Shown: positions 11,084 to 63,590 of the stretch, piece by piece
Numbering within the stretch: position 1 is the first letter of the stretch
How the letters are laid out: the number at the start of each line of letters is the position of its first letter
DNA from: Sminthopsis crassicaudata
Taxonomy: Eukaryota
NCBI RefSeq assembly: GCF_048593235.1
Contig: NC_133619.1
Coordinates: 649,428,558 to 649,492,557 of the forward strand
Length of the DNA: 64,000 nt
Direction: 5' to 3'
Notes under the pieces: generated by a model
What the model was told of the DNA's origin: nothing
Databases searched by the model: none
The model's input: only the letters and a program-made list of their open reading frames with translations
Position numbers and translations under genes: made by a program

Positions 11084-14000
11084 ACATGGGGCTGACAATC
11101 TCATCAGACACTGTGATATCTCTAACATGGGGCTGATAATCCCATCAGACACTGTGATATCTGTAACATGGGGCTGACAATCCCATCAGACACTGTGATA
11201 TCTCTAACATGGGGCTGATAATCCCATCAGACACTGTGATATCTGTAACATGGGGCTGATAATCCCATCAGACACTGTGATATCTGTAACATGGGGCTGA
11301 TAATCCCATCAGACATTGTGATATCTGTAACATGGGGCTGATAATCCCATCAGACACTGTGATATCTCTAACATGGGGCTGATAATCCCATCAGACATTG
11401 TGATATCTGTAACATGGGGCTGACAATCCCATCAGACACTATGATATCTGTAACATGGGGCTGACAATCTCATCAAACACTGTGATATCTGTAACATGGG
11501 GCTGACAATACCATCAGACACTGTGATATCTGTAACATGGGGCTGATAATCCCATCAGACATTGTGATATCTGTAACATGGGGCTGACAATCCCATCAGA
11601 CACTATGATATCTGTAACATGGGGCTGACAATCTCATCAAACACTGTGATATCTGTAACATGGGGCTGACAATACCATCAGACACTGTGATATCTGTAAC
11701 ATGGGGCTGATAATCCCATCAGACATTGTGATATCTGTAACATGGGGCTGACAATCCCATCAGACACTATGATATCTGTAACATGGGGCTGACAATCTCA
11801 TCAAACACAGGGATATATGTAACATGGGGCTGATAATCCCATCAGACACTGTGATATCTGTAACATGGGGCTGATAATCCCATCAGACATTGTGATATCT
11901 GTAACATGGGGCTGACAATCCCATCAGACACTATGATATCTGTAACATGGGGCTGACAATCTCATCAAACACAGGGATATCTGTAACATGGGGCTGATAA
12001 TCCCATCAGACACTGTGATATCTCTAACATGGGGCTGACAATCCCATCAGACACTGTGATATCTGTAACATGGGGCTGATAATCCCATCAGACACAGGGA
12101 TATCTGTAACATGGGGCTGACAATCTCATCAAACACAGGGATATCTGTAACATGGGGCTGACAATCTCATCAAACACAGGGATATCTGTAACATGGGGCT
12201 GACAATCCCATCAGACATTGTGATATCTGTAACATGGGGCTGACAATCCCATCAGACACTATGATATCTGTAACATGGGGCTGACAATCTCATCAAACAC
12301 AGGGATATCTGTAACATGGGGCTGATAATCCCATCAGACATTGTGATATCTGTAACATGGGGCTGACAATCCCATCAGACACTATGATATCTGTAACATG
12401 GGGCTGACAATCTCATCAAACACAGGGATATATGTAACATGGGGCTGATAATCCCATCAGACACTGTGATATCTGTAACATGGGGCTGATAATCCCATCA
12501 GACATTGTGATATCTGTAACATGGGGCTGATAATCCCATCAGACACTGTGATATCTGTAACATGGGGCTGATAATCCCATCAGACACTGTGATATCTGTA
12601 ACATGGGGCTGACAATCTCATCAAACACAGGGATATCTGTAACATGGGGCTGACAATCCCATCAGACACTATGATATCTGTAACATGGGGCTGACAATCC
12701 CATCAGACACTGTGATATCTGTAACATGGGGCTGATAATCCCATCAGACACTATGATATCTGTAACATGGGGCTGACAATCTCATCAAACACAGGGATAT
12801 ATGTAACATGGGGCTGATAATCCCATCAGACACTGTGATATCTGTAACATGGGGCTGATAATCCCATCAGACACTGTGATATCTGTAACATGGGGCTGAT
12901 AATCCCATCAGACACTGTGATATCTGTAACATGGGGCTGATAATCCCATCAGACATTGTGATATCTGTAACATGGGGCTGATAATCCCATCAGACACTGT
13001 GATATCTGTAACATGGGGCTGACAATCTCATCAGACACAGGGATATCTGTAACATGGGGCTGACAATCTCATCAAACACAGGGATATCTGTAACATGGGG
13101 CTGACAATCCCATCAGACACTGTGATATCTGTAACATGGGGCTGACAATCCCATCAGACACTGTGATATCTGTAACATGGGGCTGACAATCCCATCAGAC
13201 ACTGTGATATCTGTAACATGGAGCTGACAATCCCATCAGACACTGTGATATCTGTAACATGGGGCTGATAATCCCATCAGACACTGTGATATCTCTAACA
13301 TGGGGCTGACAATCCCATCAGACACTGTGATATCTGTAACATGGGGCTGACAATCCCATCAGACATTGTGATATCTGTAACATGGGGCTGATAATCCCAT
13401 CAGACATTGTGATATCTGTAACATGGGGCTGACAATCCCATCAGACATTGTGATATCTGTAACATGGGGCTGACAATCCCATCAGACAATGTGATATCTG
13501 TAACATGGGGCTGACAATCCCATCAGACACTGTGATATCTGTAACATGGGGCTGACAATCCCATCAGACACTGTGATATCTCTAACATGGGGCTGATAAT
13601 CCCATCAGACACTGTGATATCGGTAACATGGGGCTGATAATCCCATCAGACACTGTGATATCTCTAACATGGGGCTGATAATGCCATCAGAAACTGTGAT
13701 ATCTGCAACATGGGGCTGATAATCCCATCAGACACAAGGATATCTGTAACACGGGGCTGCCAATCCCATCAGACACTGTGATATCTGTAACATGGGGCTG
13801 CCAATCCCATCAGACACTGTGATATCTGTAACATGGGGCTGACAATCCCATCAGACACTGTGATATCTCTAACATGGGGCTGATAATCCCATCAGACACT
13901 GTGATATCTGTAACATGGGACTGACAATCCCATCAGACACTGTGTTATCTCTAACATGGTGCTGATAATCCCATCAGACATTGTGATATCTGTAACATGG

Positions 14001-14590
14001 GGCTGACAATCCCATCAGACAATGTGTTATCTCTAACATGGGGCTGATAATCCCATCAGACACTGTGATATCTGTAGCATGGGGCTGACAATCCCATCAG
14101 ACACAGGGATGCCTGTAACATGGGGCTGACAATCCCATCAGACACTGTGATATCTGTAACATGGGGCTGATAATCCCATCAGACACTGTGATATCTGTAA
14201 CATGGGGCTGACAATCCCATCAGACACTGTGATATCTGTAACATGGGGCTGATAATCCCATCAGACACAAGGATATCTGTAACACGGGGCTGACAATCTC
14301 ATCAGACACTGTGATATCTGTAACATGGGGCTGACAATCCCATCAGACACTGTGATATCTGTAACATGGAGCTGATAATCCCATCAGACACTGTGATATC
14401 TGTAACATGGGGCTGACAATCCCATCAGACACTGTGATATCTGTAACATGGAGCTGACAATCCCATCAGACACTGTGATATCTGTAACATGGGGCTGATA
14501 ATCCCATCAGACACTGTGATATCTGTAACATGGGGCTGACAATCCCATCAGACACTGTGATATCTGTAACATGGGGCTGATAATCCCATC
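11084..14590. repeat. 41-bp minisatellite, about 85 copies visible, left edge in an assembly gap
   Basis: Unit ctgtaacatggggctga(t/c)aatcccatcagacactgtgatat repeated head-to-tail; N-gap at 10952-11083. Confidence 0.97.
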
Positions 14591-28900: not shown

Positions 28901-31302
28901 CCTGCGCACTAGGGCTAGCTTCTGCCTCTTCCCTTGGTCCCGCCCTCTAAGCCCCTCTCCTCGATCCCATCCCCTTGATCTGTCACCCTCACCCTTCTCT
29001 CTCCTCCCCCCGTGGCTTCCTTCTTATCTCAACTCCTCCTTTCAGGCCCCTGTCCTAGCTCCTTTGAATTCTGCCCCCTTATTTCCCACTCTTCCTTTCA
29101 ACCCCAAACCTGCCCTCCCCTCCCCTAAGTCCCACCCCTTCTCTAAGCCACGCCTCCGTCCTTCCTCCTCAGACCAGCCCCGGCTTCATAGACTCCACCC
29201 CAGAACCGCCTCCTCTCTAATCCCGCCTCTCATGCCCCTCCCCGTGGTCCCGCCCTCTCAGTGACTCCCACTTTCTCAGCTCCTCATCTGCCTTTCTCCA
29301 TCCCTCCCGGGGTGGAGGCCTCTAGGGGGCGCCATGAGCATAGAGCTTTGTGCCCGAAGTCTGAAGTTCCAGTGCATCCTGGGACACTTCTAGCAGCGTG
29401 ATCTGGGGCGAGCTGTGTGCCTCAGTTTCCTCATCTGGGAAATGGAGCTCCTGAGTTGTGAGGATCACATGACATAATTTAGCATAGCCTTTAGCACAAA
29501 GCCGGCCTTCTGCTGAGCTGCGAATGGGTCAGGAAGATACCAGTGGAGCTCAAATGCTGTTCCAGACACTTCCTGTGTTCTCGGCTGGCTCCGGTTTCCT
29601 CATATATAAAATGTGCTAGAGAAGTAAATGGCCGATCTCTCCGTATCTGTGCCAAGAAAGCCCAAATGGGGTCACGTAGAGTCAGGCAGAGAGTGCCATG
29701 TTAATGCCCGCAGCTCTGCTTATAGGTTGTCTCCCAGGCCCAGCTCTGGGTTTGAAGAATGAACTCTCCCTTCCTCCCATGGGCGGGGGTGTGTGTGATA
29801 AGATAGGAGGCCTCTTGGGTACAGATAAGAAAGAAGCTTGTTCATTCTGTGCCTACCTGGTGCCAGGCACTGTGCTAAGCTCTGGAGAGACAGAGGACAG
29901 CTCCTATCCTCCACGAGCTCACAATATGATGGAGAAAACAAGTAAAGGTATACAATCAAGTTAAAAACAGAATACATAGAAAGGACTTAAGGGAGGAAGG
30001 CCCTGGATTTAAGGGAGAAGACTTCCCGTAGAAGATGAGATTTTAGTTGGGACTTAAAGGAAGCCAGGTAGATCAGTAGTCAGAGTAGAGGAAGGAGCGC
30101 ATGCCAGGCCGGTGGAGTCAGAGATCATGCCCAGAGCTGAAATGGTGGTGGAGGAGGTACGGTGGTTCTTCATGGATCAGCCAAGAGGCCTGTGTCACTG
30201 GGATCCAAGGAAGAGACTAAAGTCTAAAGAGATCGGTAAAAGTGATTGAAGGTTATAGAGGGCTTTGAAGTCCAAACAGAGCATTAGGTATTTGGTAATG
30301 GAAGTAATAGGAACCCACTGGATTTTATTGAGTGGGAGACATGATCAGACGTGTCTGTGCTTTAGAAAAATCACTTTAATGACTAAATGAAGGATGGACT
30401 GGAATGGGGAGAGAATCAAGAAGGGAAGGTCTGCCAGTAGCTATTGCAGTTGTCCAGGTGAGGTGAAGAAGGTTTCTGCCAGGACGGAGGCAGTATCAGA
30501 GAAAAAAAGGGAACATGCTGGGAAATATTGCAGAGGTTAAACTGACAAGACTTTAGCCCCTTTTTGTGGGAGTTAAGGATGATGTCTAAGTTGGAAGCCA
30601 GAGAGACTGGGAGGATAGAGAGGTGGAGGATTAGAAGGAAAGATAATGAATTCTGTTTTGGACATGTTTAGTTTATGATGTCTGAAACTATTTCCACTCA
30701 TATGAAAGAGTGTTCCAAATCACTACTGATCAGAGAAATGCAAATTAATACAACTCTGAGATACCACTACACACCTGTCAGATTGGCTAAGATGACTGGA
30801 ACAAATAACGATGAATGTTGGAGGGGATGTGGGGAAACTGGGACACTGATGCATTGTTGGTGGAGTTGTGAAAGAATCCAACCATTCTGGAGAGCAATCT
30901 GGAATTATGCCCAAAAAGTTATCAAAATGTGCATACCCTTTGATCCAGCAGTGCTACTACTGGGCTTATATCCCAGAGAAATATTAAAGAGCTGAAAGGG
31001 ACCTGTGTGTACCAAAATGTTTGTGGCAGCTCTTTTTGTAGTGGCTAGAAACTGGAAGATAAATGGATGTCCATCACTTGGAGATTGGTTGGGCAAATTG
31101 TGGTATATGAAGGGTATGGAATATTATTGCTCTGTAAGAAATGACCAGCAGGAGGAATACAGAGAGGCTTGGAGAGACTTACATCAACTGATACTAAGTG
31201 AAACATGCAGAACCTGAAGATCACTATACACTTCAACAACAATACTGTATGAGGATATATTCTGATGGAAGTGGATATCTTCAACATAGAGAAGATCTAA
31301 TC

Positions 31303-32122
31303 TGTTAGGATTACTAGGTGAGAACTCAGGTTGTCTGGACAGTGACAAGGTGAGAATTCACCTAGTAATCCTAACATCTCAACCTGAATTCTCACCTTGT
31401 CACTGTCCAGACAACCTGAGTTCTCACCTAGTAATCCTAACATCAACACGGGAAACCTCACCCGGCCCAGACACGGAAAGGNNNNNNNNNNNNNNNNNNN
31501 NNNNNNNNNNNNNNNNNNNNNNNNNNNNNNNNNNNNNNNNNNNNNNNNNNNNNNNNNNNNNNNNNNNNNNNNNNNNNNNNNNNNNNNNNNNNNNNNNNNN
31601 NNNNNNNNNNNNNNNNNNNNNNNNNNNNNNNNNNNNNNNNNNNNNNNNNNNNNNNNNNNNNNNNNNNNNNNNNNNNNNNNNNNNNNNNNNNNNNNNNNNN
31701 NNNNNNNNNNNNNNNNNNNNNNNNNNNNNNNNNNNNNNNNNNNNNNNNNNNNNNNNNNNNNNNNNNNNNNNNNNNNNNNNNNNNNNNNNNNNNNNNNNNN
31801 NNNNNNNNNNNNNNNNNNNNNNNNNNNNNNNNNNNNNNNNNNNNNNNNNNNNNNNNNNNNNNNNNNNNNNNNNNNNNNNNNNNNNNNNNNNNNNNNNNNN
31901 NNNNNNNNNNNNNNNNNNNNNNNNNNNNNNNNNNNNNNNNNNNNNNNNNNNNNNNNNNNNNNNNNNNNNNNNNNNNNNNNNNNNNNNNNNNNNNNNNNNN
32001 NNNNNNNNNNNNNNNNNNNNNNNNNNNNNNNNNNNNNNNNNNNNNNNNNNNNNNNNNNNNNNNNNNTAGGTGAGAACTCAGGTTGTCCAGACAACCTGAG
32101 TTCTCACCTAGTAATCCTAACA
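31303..32122. mobile_element. TG...CA-terminated, inverted-ended LTR-derived chimeric insertion with 6-bp TSD
   Basis: TSD ctaatc at 31297-31302 and 32123-32128, with the L1 3' UTR continuing across it. Left end tgttaggattactaggtgagaactcaggttgtc; right end its reverse complement. 31303-31360 is perfectly inverted at 31385-31442. Centre is a gap (31482-32066). Confidence 0.75.
31443..31481 (+). rRNA. 18S rRNA fragment (non-functional, captured in the insertion; runs into the gap)
   Basis: tcaacacgggaaacctcacccggcccagacacggaaagg is 37/39 identical to recalled human 18S (tcaacacgggaaacctcacccggcccggacacggacagg), starting at about human U1248. Confidence 0.85.
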
Positions 32123-33789
32123 CTAATCCAATTCCAATCAATCAATGATGGACAGAATCAACTACACCCAGAGAAGGAACACTAGGAAATGAGTGTAAAC
32201 TGTGAGCGTTTTTTGTTTTTCTTCCCTGGTTATTTTTACCTTCCAAATCCAATTCTTCCTTTGCAACAATAACAACAACAACAAAATTCAGTTCTGCACA
32301 CATATATTGTAACAAGGATATACTATAACATATTTAACATGTATGGGACTGCCTGCCATCTAGGGGAAGGAGTGGAGGGAAGGAGGGGAAAATTCAGAAC
32401 AGAAGAGAGTACAAGGGATAATGTTGTAAAAAATTACCCATGCATATGTATTGTCAAAAATGTTATAATTATAAAACTAATTTTAAAAATTAAAAAAAAA
32501 AGTTTATGATGTTTACTGGATACCCTGTTCTAGATGTCTGAAAGGTAATTGATGATTCAAGATTGGAAGTCAACAGACTGTTGGAGGCAGAAAAAGAAGA
32601 TTTAAAAATCATCAGCACAGAGATGATAATGAAATTCATGGAAGCTGAGGAGATGCCAAGTAGGGAAGAGCCACAGAAGAGGATTCAGGACAGAGCCCTG
32701 AGGGACATCTACGGCTTAGAGGGTATGATTTGTAGGAGAACGCAGCAAAGCAATCAGAGGAGCACTTAGAGAGATAGGTGGAGAAGCAGAAGAGAGGACC
32801 CTAAAAACCTAGAGAAGAGAGTATTAAAAGGGAGAGAGTGATTAGTAGTGCTAAAGGTTACAGGGAGGTCAAGGAAAATGAGGCCATTGGATCTGGCAAC
32901 TAAAAGGTCATTGGTAACTCTGGAGAGAGCACTTTCTGAGGAATTATAGGGTTGGAAACCAGATTGTAAAGGGTTAAGAAAGTGAGAGGGCAGAAAGTGG
33001 AAGCACCTAGTGTAGATAGCCTTATCCAGGAACTTAGCTACAAAGCCACAAAAGATATAAAGAGATATATGGCCATAGACAGCAGGGATACAGGAATCAA
33101 GTAAAAGTTTTTTTTTTAGGATGAAGAAGTCATGGGCATATTAAGGAATAAGCCAATAGAGAGGGAGATTGAAGATACATGATAGAGAAATGAGGTGCAA
33201 TCTCTTGAAGAAAAGGGGATGAAATGTGCTATAGAGGTTAGCCTTGGTAAAGACTAAAGCCATTTTGTTATGTAACATTAGGAGAGAAGAAGGAAAGAGT
33301 GGCAGATGGCACCTTGAGTGATAGGAGATAAAAAAAAGTGGAAGGAATATGTGGGAGAATGGCCTAAATTTTTAAATAAAATTGGAGGCAGTGCCTCAGC
33401 TGAGAGGGAGGGGAAAGAGGGAATTTTCAGAGATGTCAGGAAAAATGAGGTTTAGAAGAGGCAAAATGTGAGATAAGGTACAAAGCATTTCAGGAAGATT
33501 TTGTGTGTGTATGTGTGTACGTGTACGTGTACGTGTATGTGAGAGAGAGAGAGGGGTGGGGGTGGGGAGGATACACTTTCTCCTGGAGGCAGCCCAGAAG
33601 GCTTCCTGGATAAGGCATCATCTGAGCTGACCCTAGGAAATTTCCCTGTCCCCCAATATGGATCAGGAGAGGTAAAAATTAGAAGCAAAACATTTTTGAG
33701 GATGGACAGGGTAGAAGAAGAGAGAGTGGGATAAAGGAGAGAGAAGAATAGAATGGAGGGAAATTCATAATAATCATAACGGTGAAAAA

Positions 33790-54866: not shown

Positions 54867-57800
54867 ATGGAGAACGGGGCCCAAGAGAGCCTGGAAGACG
54901 GGGACGTGGAGGTGAGCGGCGTGGGGGTGTAAAGGGGAGGCAGAGACCATAAACCAAAGAAATGGAGAAGAGGAAGGATCGGGTGGGAGGAAACAAGACA
55001 GAGGCATCTGCAGAAAGAAATGCGCTGGGCTGGGAAAAGGAGAAAGATGGGCTGGATCGAGGGAGAGAAACACATGTGGAGTCACTGAGACAGAAGGAAC
55101 TGGACATGGAGAAGGGGGCAGAGACAGAAACTCGGGAGAAAAGCTGGCAGTGGGGGGTGGCCAGGCTGTTCCTGGGGGGACCCCGGCCTGAAGCGGTGCT
55201 GTTCTCCAAGGCTCGGGAACAGGTGGGCCAGTCCCTCAGAGTGACTCACTGTGAGTCACCAACCCCACCCTGGGACCGTGACCCAATTGTTGACCCTTGG
55301 TCTCCCCTATAGGATCCCCTCATCCCTCCAAAGGGCGCTCTAGCTTGATAGAACGAAAAAAACTTCCCAAATAATTAGCCGGGTCCGCATTTCAGCAGCT
55401 ACCTGGGAGGGAGGGAGTTTCCCCTGACTGGAAGGGGAGGACTCCATTAGAGGGATATAAGTGGAGCTTGCTAGCCTCCCTGGGAAATCTGAAATTCTGT
55501 GACCTCCCCCTCCCTCCCTTCCACCTTAGATCCTCTGGCTTGAAATCTCCCAGCACCCAGAACCATGGAGTCTTATCTAAAAGCGCTTAGAGATTGAGCT
55601 TTCCTTAACTCTACAGATTTAGAAACCGAGGCCCACAGTGTCAGGTTACCCAGAATCATTGACAGGTTACTCAGGCTCTCTCCTTCCCTCTTACTCTTGC
55701 TGTCTTTCTCACTCTCTTTTCTGTTTCTTGTCTCTGCCTCTGTCTCTGTCTTGTCTCTTTCTCTTTGTCTCGGTGTCTTGTCTCTCTGTCTCTCTCTCTC
55801 TGTGTCTCTGTCTTGTCTCTGTCTCTGGGTTTCTCTCTCTTTGCCTCTGTCTTGTCTCTCTGTCTCTGTCTCTCTCTTTCTGTGTCTCTGTCTCTGTCTT
55901 GTCTCTCTCTGCCTCTATCTCTGTTTTGTCTCTGTCTCTGTCTCTGTATCTCTCTCTGNNNNNNNNNNNNNNNNNNNNNNNNNNNNNNNNNNNNNNNNNN
56001 NNNNNNNNNNNNNNNNNNNNNNNNNNNNNNNNNNNNNNNNNNNNNNNNNNNNNNNNNNNNNNNNNNNNNNNNNNNNNNNNNNNNNNNNNNNNNNNNNNNN
56101 NNNNNNNNNNNNNNNNNNNNNNNNNNNNNNNNNNNNNNNNNNNNNNNNNNNNNNNNNNNNNNNNNNNNNNNNNNNNNNNNNNNNNNNNNNNNNNNNNNNN
56201 NNNNNNNNNNNNNNNNNNNNNNNNNNNNACACAGCGTTGGCCCTTCAGCGTCTGGTTGACCTCACAGCCAGAAGGGTGACTCAAGTCCGGAGTCTGAGGT
56301 CCTGCTACCGCCTGGTCCAGGAGTTGGGGGCCGGCACCTATGGCCGTGTCCTCCTGGCCCGACCCCGTCGAGGGGGTAAGCGGGGGTCCGTGGTGTGGGG
56401 GAGACGTCTCAGTTCCCAGGAGCCCATGATTCTCCCCATGGGGACGGGGACACAGGATACCCAGCACAGGGCCCAAGGTTCTGGCCTCCTCCCAGCTGTC
56501 CTGGGGGGCTGGCCCCTCGCTGCACAGAGGAGGAAGTCAGGATCCAGAGCAAAGGTGGGCCAGGAGACAATGGCCTCAGCGCTGGAGGCCAGACCCAGGC
56601 CCCTTCATCCCTGCTCTCCTGGTGTCCTCCTTTCCCAAGGTCCCCCTGTCGCCCTGAAGCTGCTCCCTCGGACCTCTGCGTCCCGGGCCACATTCCTCCG
56701 GGAGTTCTGCGTGGGTCGCTGTGTCTCCTCGCACCCGGGCCTGCTCAGCACCCTGGCCCCCCCGCTGCAGAGCCCCCGCCACTACGCCTTTGCCCAGGAG
56801 CTCGCACCATGCGGCGATCTCAGTGCAATGTTGGAGGAGAGGGTGAGGTCCCAAACCGGCCCCGGAGCGGGGGAAGCGGCTCAGGGGCCGGGGCTCCGGG
56901 GGCCCGGAGCTTGGGGTGCGGGGCTGGGGGGGAGAGCGGGCCCGGTCTTGGCCGGCTGCAGGCCAAGAAGAGGCTCAGAGACCGTATTGGAGTCACCGAG
57001 ACGGAGCCGGGGTCCGGGGCTCCATCAGGAGCAGGGCTGGGGCTGGCGGGAGGCTGGGAAGGGACCGGGCCGGGGAGCTGGTGGGGGGCAGCGGCCGCTG
57101 AGACTTGGGGGCTGTTCGTGGCAGAGGCTCGGAGCGCGGGCCCTGGGGGCTGGAAGGGAGGCCCGTTCATGGAAGCTTTGGGCAGCGTTTGCTGGGAGAT
57201 CTCACCAGCCCCGGAGCAGCCCCTGGGCTCTCTCGGACGGGGGTCCCAGAAGGGAAGTGCTTGCTGGCGTCCGGAGCCACATGCCCGCTCCAGTCTCCCT
57301 GACCTTATTTCCCACACTTTGTCCACTGTGCATCAGGGCTACCCTCAAGCTGCCCTGGCTCTGGCCACTCTGGGGGGCCTGGGCTCGGCCACTCTGGGGG
57401 CCCCGGGCTGCCCTGGCTCTGGCCACTCTGGGGGTCCTGGGCTCGGCCGCTCTGGGGGCCCCGGGCTGCCCTGGCTCTGGCCACTCTGGGGGGCCTGGGC
57501 TCGGCCGCTCTGGGGGCCCCGGGCTGCCCTGGCTCTGGCCACTCTGGGGGTCCTGGGCTCGGCCGCTCTGGGGGCCCCAGGCTGCCCTGGCTCTGGCCAC
57601 TCTGGGGGGCCTGGGCTCGGCCACTCTGGGGGCCCCGGGCTGCCCTGGCTCTGGCCACTCTGGGGGCCCCGGGCTGCCCTGGCTCTGGCCACTCTGGGGG
57701 TCCTGGGCTCGGCCGCTCTGGGGGCCCCGGGCTGCCCTGGCTCTGGCCACTCTGGGGGGCCTGGGCTCGGCCGCTCTGGGGGCCCCGGGCTGCCCTGGCT

Positions 57801-59207
57801 CTGGGGGCCCCGGGCTGCCCTGGCTCTGGCCACTCTGGGGGTCCTGGGCTCGGCCGCTCTGGGGGCCCCAGGCTGCCCTGGCTCTGGCCACTCTGGGGGG
57901 CCTGGGCTCGGCCGCTCTGGGGGCCCCGGGCTGCCCTGGCTCTGGCCACTCTGGGGGGCCTGGGCTCGGCCGCTCTGGGGGCCCCGGGCTGCCCTGGCTC
58001 TGGCCACTCTGGGGGGCCTGGGCTCGGCCGCTCTGGGGGCCCCGGGCTGCCCTGGCTCTGGGGACCCCGGGCTGCCCTGGCTCAGACTGCATTGCCCCAC
58101 CATTTTCCATCTCTGCCTCAGCCCTTCGTGGCCCTGTCTGGCGTCTGAGCCTGTGAGGGGGAAAGGTCCGGAGGGGAGGGGATTTCCACAGGGTCAGGGT
58201 GAGCGGAAGCCAGGCAGCCTCAGCCCGAGTCCCCATTCAGGGCTGAAAGAAGCTGGGAGAAGACCAGGGGGCGCCTTGGAAGTTGGGGGGCTCTTACCCA
58301 GTTTTAAGAGTCAGGCCAAGGCACTTCTACATTCCCAGGAAACAAAGGGGAAACCGGGGAGGAGGCTGGCCAGGGTTCGGTTCGGGAGGAGGCTGGCCAG
58401 GGTTTGGTTCGGGAGGAGGATGGGTTTGGGAGGAGATGGGCCGGGTCGTCCCCCCCCCGCCCCCCCCCCCCGGGCCCAGAGCGAGGCCCCTGAGCCTGAC
58501 CTCTCCCCTGGCAGGGCCTCCCCGAGCGGCCGCTGAAGCGCGTGGGGGTCCAGCTGGCCCGGGCCCTGGACTTCCTGCACTCCCGGGGCCTGGTCCACGC
58601 CGATGTCAAGCCCGACAACGTGCTGGTGTTTGACAGAGCCTGCCGCCGGGTGGCCCTGGGGGACTTCGGGCTGACCCGGCCCGAGGGCTGCCCGGCGCCC
58701 GCGCCGCCCGGCCCCCTGCCCTCGGCGCCCCCCGAGCTGTGCCTCCTGCGGCCCCCCGCCGCCCTGGCCCTGCGGCCCGAGCTGGACTCCTGGGGGCTGG
58801 GAGTGCTCCTGTTCTGTGCCGCCACGGCCGCCTTTCCCTGGGCCGTGGCCCTGGCTCCCGACCCCGGGTTCGAAACCTTTGCGGCCTGGCAAACCGCTCG
58901 GCCCCCGCCGGCCCTGCCGCCCCAGCCCTGGGCCCAGTTCTCCGCCGCGGCGCAGACCCTCCTCCGGGGGCTGCTGGCCCTCGAGCCCGAGGAGAGGAGC
59001 CCACCCATCGCTGTGCTGGACTGGGTTGGGGAGGCCTGGGTGGTGGGGGACGTAGGGGAGGGGGAGGGGGTGGGGGAGGAGAGGGAGGAGGAGGAGAGGG
59101 GCTGGGAGGAGGGGGAAGGTGCTGGTGGAGAAGAGGAGAGCAGCTTGGATGAGGGGGGAGAGGAAGAGGAGGAAGCTGGGCTGGGGCCGGCCCCAGGGAC
59201 TCCCTGA
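54867..59207 (+). CDS. SBK3: SBK family kinase 3; exons 54867-54911, about 56225-56375 (start in gap), 56640-56842, 58515-59207
   Basis: MENGAQESLEDGDVE|..DTALALQRLVDL..GAGTYGRVLL..VALK..FLREFCVGRCVS..|GLPE..LHSRGLVHADVKPDNVLVF..DFG..PELC. GT-AG boundaries with consistent phases (0,1,0). The exon-2 acceptor and about 4 nt lie in the N-gap. Confidence 0.9.
55690..55958. repeat. (TC/TG)n low-complexity tract running into an assembly gap
   Basis: Directly visible; N-gap at 55959-56228. Confidence 0.85.
57349..58083. repeat. GC-rich 58-bp minisatellite in SBK3 intron 3
   Basis: Unit gctgccctggctctggccactctggggggcctgggctcggccgctctgggggccccgg, with shorter (about 36- and 24-bp) deletion variants. 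Confidence 0.95.
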
Positions 59208-59645
59208 CCAGGTGGTGAGGCAGGTGGCCTGGGCCCCAGCCAGGTCCTCCCCCCTAACCCCCCCACAGGAGCCACCTGGACTGAGGAGACAGCTGGCCTG
59301 AGGGGGAGGGGGGAGGCGTCCTTTCTACCTAGTCCAGGAGCCCAGGGGCCTGGCATCCTCCCCCCACCCCCCCAGGGGTCCTGCTCCCTCCTCCCACCCC
59401 CTCTAGAGGTCCTGCTCCCTCTCTAACACCCCCCCCAGGGCCTGGCTCCCTGGAGTTCCAGTGAATTCCTGCAGGCGGCGGATGCCCTGGCTGCCATCCC
59501 GGGAGGGGCAGCTGGGATTGGAGCCCCCTCCCCGACCCCCCCCTCACTCTCCCAGGGCAGTGACTGCCTCAGGGTCACACGGACGGGGGAGGCCTGGATG
59601 GCTGGGGCCCTTGGACGGCACTGCCTGGGGGCAGGACGGTTAGCC

Positions 59646-59651
59646 AATAAA
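59646..59651 (+). terminator. Poly(A) signal of SBK3
   Basis: AATAAA about 440 nt downstream of the stop codon. Confidence 0.7.
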
Positions 59652-61515
59652 GCCTCCCTGGTGCACTTGTCTCCTTTGTCCTGGAGAAATGGGCTGGGAG
59701 GGCGAGGCCAGGTGGGGCCCCGGGTGCTCAGAGCCCTCCCCGGGGGCGCCCGCTCCCCCCTGTCGGGGATTTAAAGCCGGGCAGCTGGAGCCGATGAGGT
59801 CAGTGGGCAGATGTTTCCTGGGAAAGCCCCTTCCCCGAGCCTGCCCGAGCCCCGGGGGGAGGGGGGAGAGCTGGGGCCCAGCCTCTAAGGAGCTGGCCCT
59901 CTGCCGCCCCTCCCCCAGCGGTGCCCCTGTGATGGGCCCGAGACAAGTGGGGGGGGGGGCGAAACGGGGGCGGGCGGGCTGAGAACGAGGCAGCTGGATA
60001 CCAGGCTGATGTGGTGGGTCGTGATCTCAGAGCATCCAGGCCGTGCTGGAGCCCTGGGGGGGCCGGGGCCTTGAGGGCAGGCCATCCGTCCCTGGGGCGC
60101 TCTCTGATGCTCTGGGGGGCGCCCGGCTCCCCTCGCCCACCCGTGGGCAGTAACCGGAGGGCCCACACGGTGTCGCTCTGGCCCTGGGGGGGAAGGGGGA
60201 CATGGGGGAGGGGCCTGGGGAGGGGTGTGGCCAAGGCCCCCCACGGGGCAGGGGGGCAGGGGGCGGGGTCTCTGGGCCTATGGCCTGGCTTGGGGTTGGC
60301 AGCCACCCCAATCAGCCGGGGCACTGACCAGAGGAGGTAGCGAGAGACCCGGAGCCCTTGGGGGAGGTGAGACTTCAGGGGTTGGGGGCTGCCTGATGGG
60401 CGGGAGCCTTGGGCAAGGCCTCTGAGCCTGGGTGTTCTGGGGGGGCCGCAGGGCCTTGGGAAGTGGGGCCCGGGGGTCGTGGGGACGGGTCCTGCCGGAG
60501 GCCGGGGCTGGGGCGCAGGCGTCTGGGAGCCAGCGCAGCATGGGCGGGGAGCTCAACACCAAAGTCCCGACGGAGCGGGCGGCTGGGGTCCCTCCCAGGC
60601 TCCCGGCGCAGAGAGGAGCCGGGGCCCCAAAGCCACAGGCTCTGACAGCGCCAGGGGGGCCTGGAGGGCAGACTCCTGGGCCCTGCAGGGGGTGTGAGCC
60701 CGAGGGCCTGGCCCCTCAGATTCCTAAAAGCAGTGAAAGTTTGGGGCAGGAACCTGGGCAGGAAGGGGTTGAGGGGCTGGGGGCCTCGCGCTGAGGCTCC
60801 TGGGAAATGGGAACCCAACTGCCTGGTCTCTGGGAGAGAAAAGACTGGGCCTTTTAGCCGGAGTGTTAGACTCGGGACCAAAGGCCCAGACCCCCAGGAC
60901 CGAGGCCAGGATGCAGAGCCCCTAACAGAATTGAGGGCCGGGTCCTCCAGGGGTTTCCGGCTGCCTATGGCCGCCCATGGCCTGAACTCCTGGGTTCCTG
61001 AGGCGCCTGGTGCCAAAATCCTGTCTCCATCTTGTCCGCCCCCACCCCCACCCTGCTTCAGCTTTCTTAACCCTGCCCCTGGGGGTGAGGAGCACCTGTC
61101 TTCTCATGAAATGAGGACTCTGATTCCCCCCCCAAGTTTGTTTGCTTTGGAGACAGTGGGGGCTGGCTTCTCCTGCCTGGTTCATCTTTCCTCCCACTGG
61201 AGGCCCGGCTGGGGGGGAGGGGGAGGGATTTGAGAGGGCGGGGTCTAGAGAAGAGGGGCCCTCTCTGACCCCCGCCCCCGGCCCCATGCCTCAGTGGTCA
61301 GCTTTCTTAACTTTTCTGACTTTCTCTCAAAACCCACCCATCCGGAGCTGGCAGCGAGTTCCCCACCCTACATGCCTCTGGGGTCCCTGCGGGAGCCCAG
61401 AGATCTGGACTCACTTGGTGGGGAGAGGCTGGAGCTGGGAACCCTAATACCCTCCTCCCACTATGAGCCCGGCCCCTCCTCTGGTCACTGGTCCGGCCTG
61501 GCTTTTCCAGTCACC

Positions 61516-63590
61516 ATGACGGGAGAAAAGGGCGAGGAGGATGAGGAGGACCTGAGCTGGGACCTGGAGGACCTCACCATGGAGGAGCTGAGTGAGGGGC
61601 AGGCAGCTGCTCGGGCCCTGGAGGACACACTGGCTTTGAGCTCCCAGGCGCTGCTTCGGACCGAGGTTGAGGACCTCTACAATGAGGTCCGCCAGCTGGG
61701 CCAGGGCCGCTTTGGCCGAGTCCTGCTGGTCACCCACCGACAAAGAGGTAGTTAGGAGGGACGGGAGCGGGGCTGCCGGGTCTGGGGTCCCCAGGGGAAT
61801 AGCAGAGGGCCAAAGGGACGACGGCGAGTTACCCAAAGGAGGGGTAGACCCGCCACCCGCCCTAGGGGGCCTTGCCTCTGACAGTACAGGGCAGGGGCAA
61901 GAAGCCTCAGGATGTGCTCAAATCAGAACCAGGCTGGCCCTGGGAGTGCAGCCCCAGGACTGGGGGGCCCCAGGGCTGACAGCCCCACGGGGCCTCGAGG
62001 CCCCAGCCCATCCAGGCTGCTTGAGCCCCGTGGACCCGAGTTCACGTACTGGATGTGTGCCCTTGTTTGTGAGCTCCTCTCCTGGGGGTCAGCCGGCCAG
62101 CTAGCCTGGGCCCAGGACTGCCACGTGAGCCTTCAGCTCCCGCTTCCATAAAGCAAGCGGTCTGCTCTCCGCCCAGGCCAGTGTCTTGGGCCCAGTCTGG
62201 CTCTGGCCCTCCGCCAATCCTTGCTCTTCCTTCCCTCCCGCGGGGTCCCTCAGGGACCGCCATGGCCCTCAAGCTTCTCTCCAAGGCCTCGACAACGCGC
62301 CAAGGTTTCCTGTATGAGTTCTGTGTGGGGCTGACCCTCGGCTCTCACCCCGGCATCGTGGCCACCTACGGGATCGGGCTGGAGACCCAGACCTGCTACG
62401 GCTTCCTCTCGGAGCCGGCCCTGCACGGGGACCTCATTGCCCTGATCCAACCCAAGGTAGGTCAGCAGCCTGCAGGCGCAGGGAGACCAGGGGACGCCCA
62501 CAGGGGCAGGAGCCTCTGAATCTGGGGGCCTCCTGCCGAGCTCTCAGGGTATCTGGAAAGACTCCCCAAGAGGAGCTCCGGGAAGCCCCGGGAGTCTGGG
62601 TGATGACTCCTCAGACAGGATCCTCAGGGGCCTCAGAGAAGGCAGGAAGGAGAAGCTAAGGCTCCCCGGGTCTGCCAAAGGCGTTGGTTCTGAGGAAAGG
62701 GGAGGGGGTTCTAGTAAATCAGGGGGGGGGTTAAGAGGAGGTTTGGGTTCCGGGGAGGGGGGGAATCGATGCTCGGCCAGGTCAGCCCAGAGGATCACAG
62801 AACTCTAGGACGTTGGGGCCGGGTCATCCATTCCAGTGAGTCCATCTGGGTGGGTGGCAGACGATGGCTGCGAAGCGCTGGGGACAAGTGGGGATTGCTC
62901 AGAGGCAGGACAGCCGGGCGGGCCGAGGGCGCTGAGCCCAGGGCTGGGGCCTGCCTCTCTTGCTCCCCACAGAGGGGCCTTCCTGAGGCAGCAGCTCAGC
63001 TCTGTGCGCAGCAGCTCTCCTCGGCCTTGGAGCACGTCCATTCCCGGGGCCTCGTATACCGAGACCTGAAGCCCGAAAACGTGTTGGTCTTTGAGCCGGG
63101 CTGTCGGAGGGTGAAGCTGACCGACTTCGGGCACACCCGGCCCCGGGGGACCCTGCTGCGCCTGGCCGGGCCCCCCATCCCCTACACCGCCCCCGAGCTC
63201 TGCGGCCCCAGCCGCCGGCCTCAAGGGCTGCCCATCCAGCCCTCACTGGACGCCTGGGCCCTGGGGGTCCTTCTGTTCTGTCTCCTCACTGGCTACTTCC
63301 CCTGGGACCAACCGCTAGCTGGGGAGGACCCCTTCTACCAGGACTTCCTGGACTGGAGAGCCTCCGGGAGGGCCTGTGACCGCCCCGCCCCTTGGGCCGC
63401 TCTGAGCCCCGTGGCCGACCGGCTGCTGGGGCTGCTGCTTGACCCTCGGCCCCGGCTCAGGGGCCCCGTGGGCTCCGTCCGGGCCTTTCTGGGCCAGTGC
63501 TGGCAGGAGAGGGCCGGGAGCCCACAGCTGGCCAGGAAGAGGGAAGAGAGGGAGGGGGAGGAGGGGGAGCAGGAGGAGGGGGCCGAGTGA
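61516..63590 (+). CDS. SBK2: SBK family kinase 2 (350 aa); exons 61516-61747, 62254-62456, 62973-63590
   Basis: LTMEEL..AARALED..GQGRFGRVLLVTHRQR|GTAMALK..GFLYEFCVGL..IQPK|RGLPE..YRDLKPEN..DFGHTRPRGTLLRLAGPPIPYTAPE matches recalled SBK2. GT-AG boundaries; the 203-nt middle exon equals the length of SBK3 exon 3. Confidence 0.95.

Follow-up and report, generated by a model that had tools for sequence, protein, structure and literature searches.

Dispersed rRNA copies that begin at putatively modified bases, and an 18S rRNA insert between inverted retroviral U3 ends, in Sminthopsis crassicaudata

An 820-bp insert at positions 31303-32122 of the 64,000-nucleotide stretch of Sminthopsis crassicaudata DNA analysed here (the window) joins a partial 18S rRNA copy to inverted U3 ends of an endogenous retrovirus (ERV), and the copy breaks off at, or directly beside, a uridine predicted to carry the m1acp3-psi modification. 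Across the genome, dozens of rRNA pieces begin at or just after a base known to carry a modification, likely through stalling of reverse transcriptase (RT). We assign a probability of roughly 85% to a reading in which the insert was built as one nascent strand that left the viral template for mature 18S rRNA, stalled before the modified base and jumped back to U3 ends before integration. The original prediction, made from the window alone, was that an RT had copied mature, modified 18S rRNA, come to a halt at m1acp3-psi and then switched to the end of the element; it is supported by pile-ups of 5' ends at this 18S U and at the 28S m1A and m3U, together with miscoding at m3U.

The insert consists, in order, of a U3 hairpin, 64 bp of U3, 18S nt 1272-1884 of 1891 from the molecule's 3' third and a second U3 hairpin, and is flanked by a 6-bp target-site duplication (TSD). 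The locus recovered from the species' own genome (L002) equals the window at all non-N bases and supplies the whole 820 bp. The LTR-18S junction was found in the sequence at the place where it had been described. The features are as follows.

30670..32512, plus strand: host retrotransposon fragment with an A-rich tail, split by the insert; 12-bp flanking direct repeat at 30670-30681 and 32501-32512
31297..31302, plus strand: TSD, left copy, 6 bp
31303..31378, plus strand: left fold-back, U3 nt 1-58 followed by U3 nt 16-1 in reverse complement and the two terminal bases; at its outer end it is cut back to TG
31379..31442, minus strand: LTR U3 nt 1-64, the same as the LTR start in 21 of 28 other loci examined
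31443..31444, no strand assigned: ambiguous dinucleotide, either 18S U1272-C1273 (human 1248-1249) or an unprocessed LTR end
31443..32052, plus strand: 18S rRNA copy, nt 1272-1884 of 1891 (own rDNA numbering), 98.2% identical to the species' rDNA
32053..32122, minus strand: right fold-back, U3 start folded onto U3 nt ~30-39; inner end with two terminal bases, outer end trimmed TG...CA
32123..32128, plus strand: TSD, right copy, 6 bp

The host fragment resembles what we take to be an L1 3' end, and the exact TSD restores the host element around the insert. All three inner U3 joins retain the dinucleotide that precedes TG in the provirus, and both outer U3 ends lack it and start at TG. Integrase removes two terminal bases of viral DNA; because the dinucleotide is retained inside and absent outside, the inner joins must have used DNA ends that had not been trimmed, and processing took place at the outer ends. 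A provirus or solo LTR has U3 at one end and U5 at the other, and here both ends are U3, in inverted orientation. An L1-type tailless retropseudogene has its RNA copy directly between TSDs of variable length, and here LTR ends bound the insert. We rejected a DNA transposon or MITE as the source of the inverted ends, as the inverted repeat is the LTR start and other inverted-U3 elements differ inside. The fold-back points rest on microhomologies of only 3-4 nt, and minimum-energy folding of nascent U3 pieces did not recover them. The perfect 58-bp inverted repeat with its 24-nt loop (31303-31442) would give a long hairpin if transcribed. An Rfam scan of the window at the gathering threshold returned no match, and miRNA hairpin matches to the fold-back in an E-value scan of 31200-32200 were sub-threshold only and were rejected. 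Although 20 of 22 listed sequencing runs contain 0.28-0.61 of the stretch's words, the stretch is mostly repeat and rRNA, and these runs are hence uninformative on the junction.

The 39 nt at 31443-31481 are 18S, as predicted: they match the species' own rDNA at 38 of 39 positions, the sole difference being a CpG G>A. The rDNA reference comprises two units identical to each other (L032, L033), with an 18S of 1891 nt. How far the copy extends beyond the gap in the window could be read from L002, in which it continues as nt 1272-1884 and stops 7 nt before the mature 3' end, with no ITS1; of 84 distinct non-rDNA 18S pieces, not one extends past nt 1884. The 18S part scores 461 bits against Rfam RF01960 and departs from rDNA through four transitions at CpG, four substitutions of other kinds and the loss of three bases, and the two m6,2A positions were passed without error.

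Nucleotide 1272 is the U of GAC-U-C and lies 619 nt from the 18S 3' end; the equivalent human U would lie 621 nt from that end, on a human 18S length that we take to be 1869. By this sequence correspondence, nt 1272 is the putative m1acp3-psi position, human 1248. The prediction that the 18S part begins at this U therefore stands as to position, since position 1272 equals human 1248, but its first two bases could equally be an unprocessed LTR end: 31443-31444 agree with 18S U1272-C1273 and with the LTR end alike, and the U itself therefore cannot be assigned to the 18S part with certainty. A stop opposite C1273 (human 1249), one base before the modification, followed by a jump with one base of homology is likely. 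This simplest reading shifts the breakpoint by one base from the earlier one, toward the primer-extension result in yeast, where the stop is described at 1192, one base before modified 1191 (PMC4872110). GAC-U-C is the HinfI site described as overlapping 18S.1248, whose modification is described as conserved across eukaryotes and as causing misincorporation and stalling (10.1101/840132).

Genome-wide, the 5' ends of 18S pieces do pile up at this U, as had been proposed, and are not uniformly distributed. A query spanning U+5..U+69 (best 40 of 345 candidates scored, 30 loci examined) gave 28 non-rDNA loci, all of which start at U-4..U+4. With an 80-mer centred on U (best 40 of 214 candidates; 41 matches, two of them rDNA), 37 of 39 non-rDNA matches start at query positions 35-43, where U is 41, and the remaining two read through. 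A query 300 nt downstream (best 40 of 57 candidates) returned 28 non-rDNA pieces, whose 5' ends are scattered over 1296 to 1538 except for four at 1272-1275; none of the 28 passes U, and all four that reach U+5 stop at U..U+3. At the background of 0.0048 stops per nt this has P about 3e-7, or 1e-5 leaving out the copy in the window. The upstream query (best 40 of 43 candidates) also returned 28 pieces, among which only the same two read-throughs cross U, and, as a control, 0/40 of its matches start at query 35-49. These searches, like the 28S control described below (best 40 of 60), favour young copies.

The 42 short pieces start most often at U+1 (13), which corresponds to the yeast primer-extension stop at 1192, followed by +3 (7) and +2 (6). 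Far read-through at U occurs in two copies only, one with U>C and one unchanged. Four more copies pass U by 4-6 nt, with an A, a deletion, an adjacent deletion and an adjacent insertion, and are so short that chance may account for them. The 45 pieces that begin at U-1..U+4 are 87 to 100% identical to rDNA, 25 of them at 100%, with CpG transitions at 8.7% versus 1.0% for other substitutions; this CpG-biased change marks them as aged genomic DNA.

The same analysis was made at two sites in 28S rRNA, with 80-mers centred on m1A and m3U, at positions presumed from their sequence context, that were fixed before searching. Both are Watson-Crick-face rRNA modifications (PMC5066629, PMC10245971, 10.1101/313874), and they and m1acp3-psi are called highly mutagenic or stopping for RT (PMC10245971, PMC5066629). 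RT stalling, if it is the cause, affects Watson-Crick-face modifications alike, and the two 28S sites should thus behave like the 18S site. At m1A (10/10 candidates scored), six of nine non-rDNA copies start at 0..+3, four of them at +1, and all three read-throughs keep A. At m3U (35/35 candidates scored), 17 of the 24 matches that start within the query do so at 0..+3 (P about 3e-13 versus uniform). Six of ten distinct read-through copies at m3U have U>A, versus 6/292 mismatches at other T columns (P about 1e-8), and the other four keep T. These copies look independent, with different ends and flanks. The rDNA copy of the 28S 3' part was not returned from the assembly; the m3U reference is a dispersed copy (L154), left out of the ten, whose private differences at -30 and +51 were ignored. 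A 28S control 100 nt downstream, weak for partial matches, gave 0/41 matches starting at query 35-49 (best 40 of 60 candidates).

The partner of the 18S copy had been described as a terminal repeat. It is indeed an element end, which we could refine to 64 nt at the start (U3 end) of an ERV LTR, using an own-genome search with the 66 bp left of the junction (486 candidates, best 40 scored, 30 loci examined). The LTR is ~430 bp long with TG...CA ends, preceded by a polypurine tract (PPT) and followed by a primer-binding site (PBS). The PPT precedes the LTR start (PPT...GA, then directly TGTTAGG) in 24/30 loci examined, and exactly 6 bp are duplicated at 12/21 LTR starts that lack it. The exact 18-mer made of the LTR start and the two preceding bases occurs 987 times in the genome, and its reversed control 0 times. 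A PBS starting with TGG follows the LTR in L004, L025 and L028 and may be that for tRNA-Lys. A provirus encodes retroviral gag between two such LTRs (Gag_p24, 1.5e-34; Gag_p24_C, 4e-20; zf-CCHC_5, 6.7e-5, below the curated cut-off), and the single provirus examined has no pol ORF of at least 100 aa. From its sequence, the source is called class-II-like (betaretrovirus-like). Inverted U3-U3 mini-elements of 160-1500 bp that contain no rRNA were seen at L001, L006, L008, L197, L199, L210, L212 and L214, several with short TSDs, and DNA with U3 at both ends appears to integrate often in this ERV family.

As to which elements the 18S and 28S pieces join, 32 of 155 distinct pieces, the window's included, lie within 40 bp of sequence from this ERV family, versus 1 of 212 background points. 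In 17 of the 20 pieces with an ERV neighbour on the rRNA 3' side, viral sense DNA continues into antisense rRNA, which points to plus-strand synthesis. Eight loci (L034, L054, L161, L162, L165, L179, L181, L187) continue onto rRNA and exit no more than 3 nt from a modified base. At L034, L038, L054 and L055, the U5/PBS end of an LTR that is complete or nearly so leads directly into antisense 18S, as if plus-strand strong-stop DNA had jumped to rRNA instead of the viral PBS. Single ERV chimeras with both 18S and 28S pieces were observed at L162, L166 and L171, which fits whole ribosomes near the RT. Two separate proviral copies (L262, L269) switch into antisense 18S at base 1257, from the same internal position and with ~15 nt of overlap; this is either a homology-guided hotspot or the mark of a shared ancestor.

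The favoured reading orders these events as follows on the window's minus strand. Plus-strand DNA would be primed at the polypurine tract and copy ~39 nt of U3, then fold back and extend to the very tip of the blunt U3 end, with both terminal bases retained. The RT, presumably that of the ERV, would next jump to mature 18S rRNA at the foot of helix 45, 7 nt from the 3' end, copy ~610 nt and stall opposite C1273, one base before the modified U. A jump with one-base homology would carry the strand to the 3' end of U3 minus-strand DNA, of which 64 nt would be copied, and a second jump would lead to another U3 end and a further fold-back. After second-strand synthesis, integrase would trim two bases off both outer U3 ends and insert the product with the 6-bp duplication. 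Plus-strand transfer ordinarily works in this manner, with a stop at the modified base m1A58 of the tRNA followed by a jump. The scheme supposes that this species modifies its rRNA at the predicted positions and that rRNA met the RT, possibly by co-packaging in particles. Several observations count against it: the two-base ambiguity of the insert's own stop, the error-free passage of the m6,2A pair, the A kept in all three m1A read-throughs and the T kept in four of ten at m3U, the small number of 18S read-throughs, and the limit of 40 scored candidates in the larger searches.

Most rRNA pieces are not ERV-joined (123/155). A class of ~70-nt 18S pieces, nt 1273-1343 (L062-L120, e.g. G000:C6:107038630 and C4:76472551), stands out: the first-look candidate count was 345 for its region versus 43-57 at other 18S windows. 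Its 3' end is sharp, 18 of 42 pieces ending at 1343, which suggests a fixed primer and a fixed stall; both long read-through copies likewise end near there, at 1342 and 1346. Only 1/40 in this dominant class is ERV-joined; given this and the 123/155, most rRNA pieces were probably made by another RT or route than the ERV-joined ones. No TSD of at least 7 bp flanks 35 of 42 short pieces, and most of the seven with such a repeat lie in tandem or simple repeats. Having neither TSD nor tail, as in class 2 templated insertions, the short pieces look like cDNA patches placed at breaks by another RT. An rRNA-derived SINE has shared master ends and an A-rich tail; here ends and flanks vary per copy, and no tail appears in the flanks seen.

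This discrete class, with its recurrent end at 1343, resembles a defined RNA fragment, and the 5' ends might accordingly be physical ends of rRNA, produced by nuclease cuts or stops at exposed positions, with the RT running off a broken template. The modified 18S U lies in an exposed loop, and the starts are scattered over +1..+4 rather than fixed on a single base, which would suit such an origin. We nevertheless think it improbable. The three sites are chemically different, lie in two rRNAs and have only RT blocking in common; the U>A change in six of ten m3U read-throughs requires an RT that met the modified base; and long pieces with varied 3' ends have the same stop. End trimming at insertion would be expected to give the +2..+4 spread.

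Assembly at the DNA level or by L1 machinery, in which existing 18S cDNA and LTR ends were combined during break repair and the ERV RT was not the copier, seems less probable again. It draws on the lack of long TSDs at most short pieces, as in class 2 templated insertions (PMC5110952), and on the location of the insert within an L1-like fragment. The 6-bp TSD, with outer ends trimmed TG...CA and inner ends untrimmed, speaks for integration, and the adjacency of 32/155 pieces to one ERV family with a 17/20 strand bias speaks for the ERV; this alternative would in any case still require the RT stall and change only the enzyme. Least credible, to the point of being nearly negligible, is an assembly or library chimera of fold-back reads with an rRNA cDNA contaminant. 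Perfect hairpins do look like fold-back artefacts, cDNA libraries typically contain RT stops at these bases, identity to rDNA is 100% in 25/45 pieces that begin at U-1..U+4, and the junction is known from assembly sequence alone. Yet the insert differs from rDNA at 11 positions, its TSD restores the host element exactly, other pieces go down to 87% identity with CpG-biased decay, and the locus lies mid-contig in a 3.24-Gb assembly of 8 contigs.

Several known systems resemble parts of this account. In retroviral capture of host RNA by template switching or patch repair, as reviewed in PMC4997597, the RT likewise leaves the viral template, copies an unlinked host RNA and returns, and the product integrates. 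The captured RNAs named in the cited portion of that review are 7SL, tRNA, 5S, U6, Y and vault RNAs and oncogene mRNAs, not 18S or 28S; unlike them, the capture described here recurs in the germline, occurs mostly on the plus strand, has its exit probably set by rRNA modifications and gives a two-U3-ended product. Tailless retropseudogenes (PMC5322556) likewise derive from structured, non-polyadenylated RNAs, are dispersed and favour particular end points, but those are L1-type, TSD-flanked and with 3' hotspots, whereas the hotspot here is the 5' end; that source gives only two 18S and ten 28S cases in human, and the string 'modif' is absent from its main text. Short cDNA patches that lack both TSD and tail are described in PMC5110952 as class 2 templated sequence insertions and suit most of the ~70-nt 18S pieces; unlike them, the window insert has integrase-type ends, and 'ribosom' is absent from the main text of that paper. 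In vitro RT-stop and misincorporation mapping of m1acp3-psi, m1A and m3U (as presented in PMC4872110, 10.1101/840132, PMC5066629 and PMC10245971) gives the same sites, a stop one base before and a substitution on read-through, but in this genome endogenous enzymes have fixed that signature in germline DNA. SINE28 (PMC4994717) is also a dispersed rRNA-derived mammalian sequence, but a Pol III element that carries a tail and derives from the 3' end of 28S, and human rDNA pseudogenes are dispersed rRNA sequence for which a DNA route without RT is argued (PMC5381670); in contrast to both, the ends of the pieces described here are independent of one another and bear an RT signature. In the parts cited here, PMC4994717, PMC5381670 and PMC10946416 treat rRNA-derived repeats without this pattern.

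In the literature covered, which excluded subscription journals and supplements, we found no report of rRNA retrocopy ends or substitutions marking modifications, and no description of frequent 18S/28S capture by an ERV with plus-strand bias and two-U3-ended integration. We lean toward a more general view, with less assurance than for the insert itself: mammalian genomes would hold a natural, germline-fixed RT-stop and misincorporation map of rRNA, from which Watson-Crick-face modifications (m1acp3-psi, m1A, m3U and perhaps unknown ones) could be read and dated from an assembly alone, extinct species included. Here, a class II ERV would routinely carry ribosomes into its RT complex, its plus-strand DNA would run onto rRNA, modified bases would act as signals to jump, in the way that tRNA m1A58 terminates strong-stop DNA, and U3-U3 products would integrate. 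Dispersed rRNA 'junk' would thereby become evidence, hundreds of candidate copies reporting which bases were modified in germline ribosomes when copied. This would open RNA-modification history to comparative genomics and make visible how endogenous RTs handle modified templates in vivo. It also calls for caution, as base differences at these sites in rRNA pseudogenes are not rDNA variants.

The wider neighbourhood of the insert contains a GC-rich cluster of C2H2 zinc-finger genes with two or more kinase genes (window 2203-52169 and 55598-63590), which we take to resemble the human ZNF580/ZNF865/ZNF784/ZNF524/FIZ1/ZNF579/SBK2/SBK3 region. A 41-bp minisatellite occupies window 11084-14590, with 85.5 copies and 93% matches.
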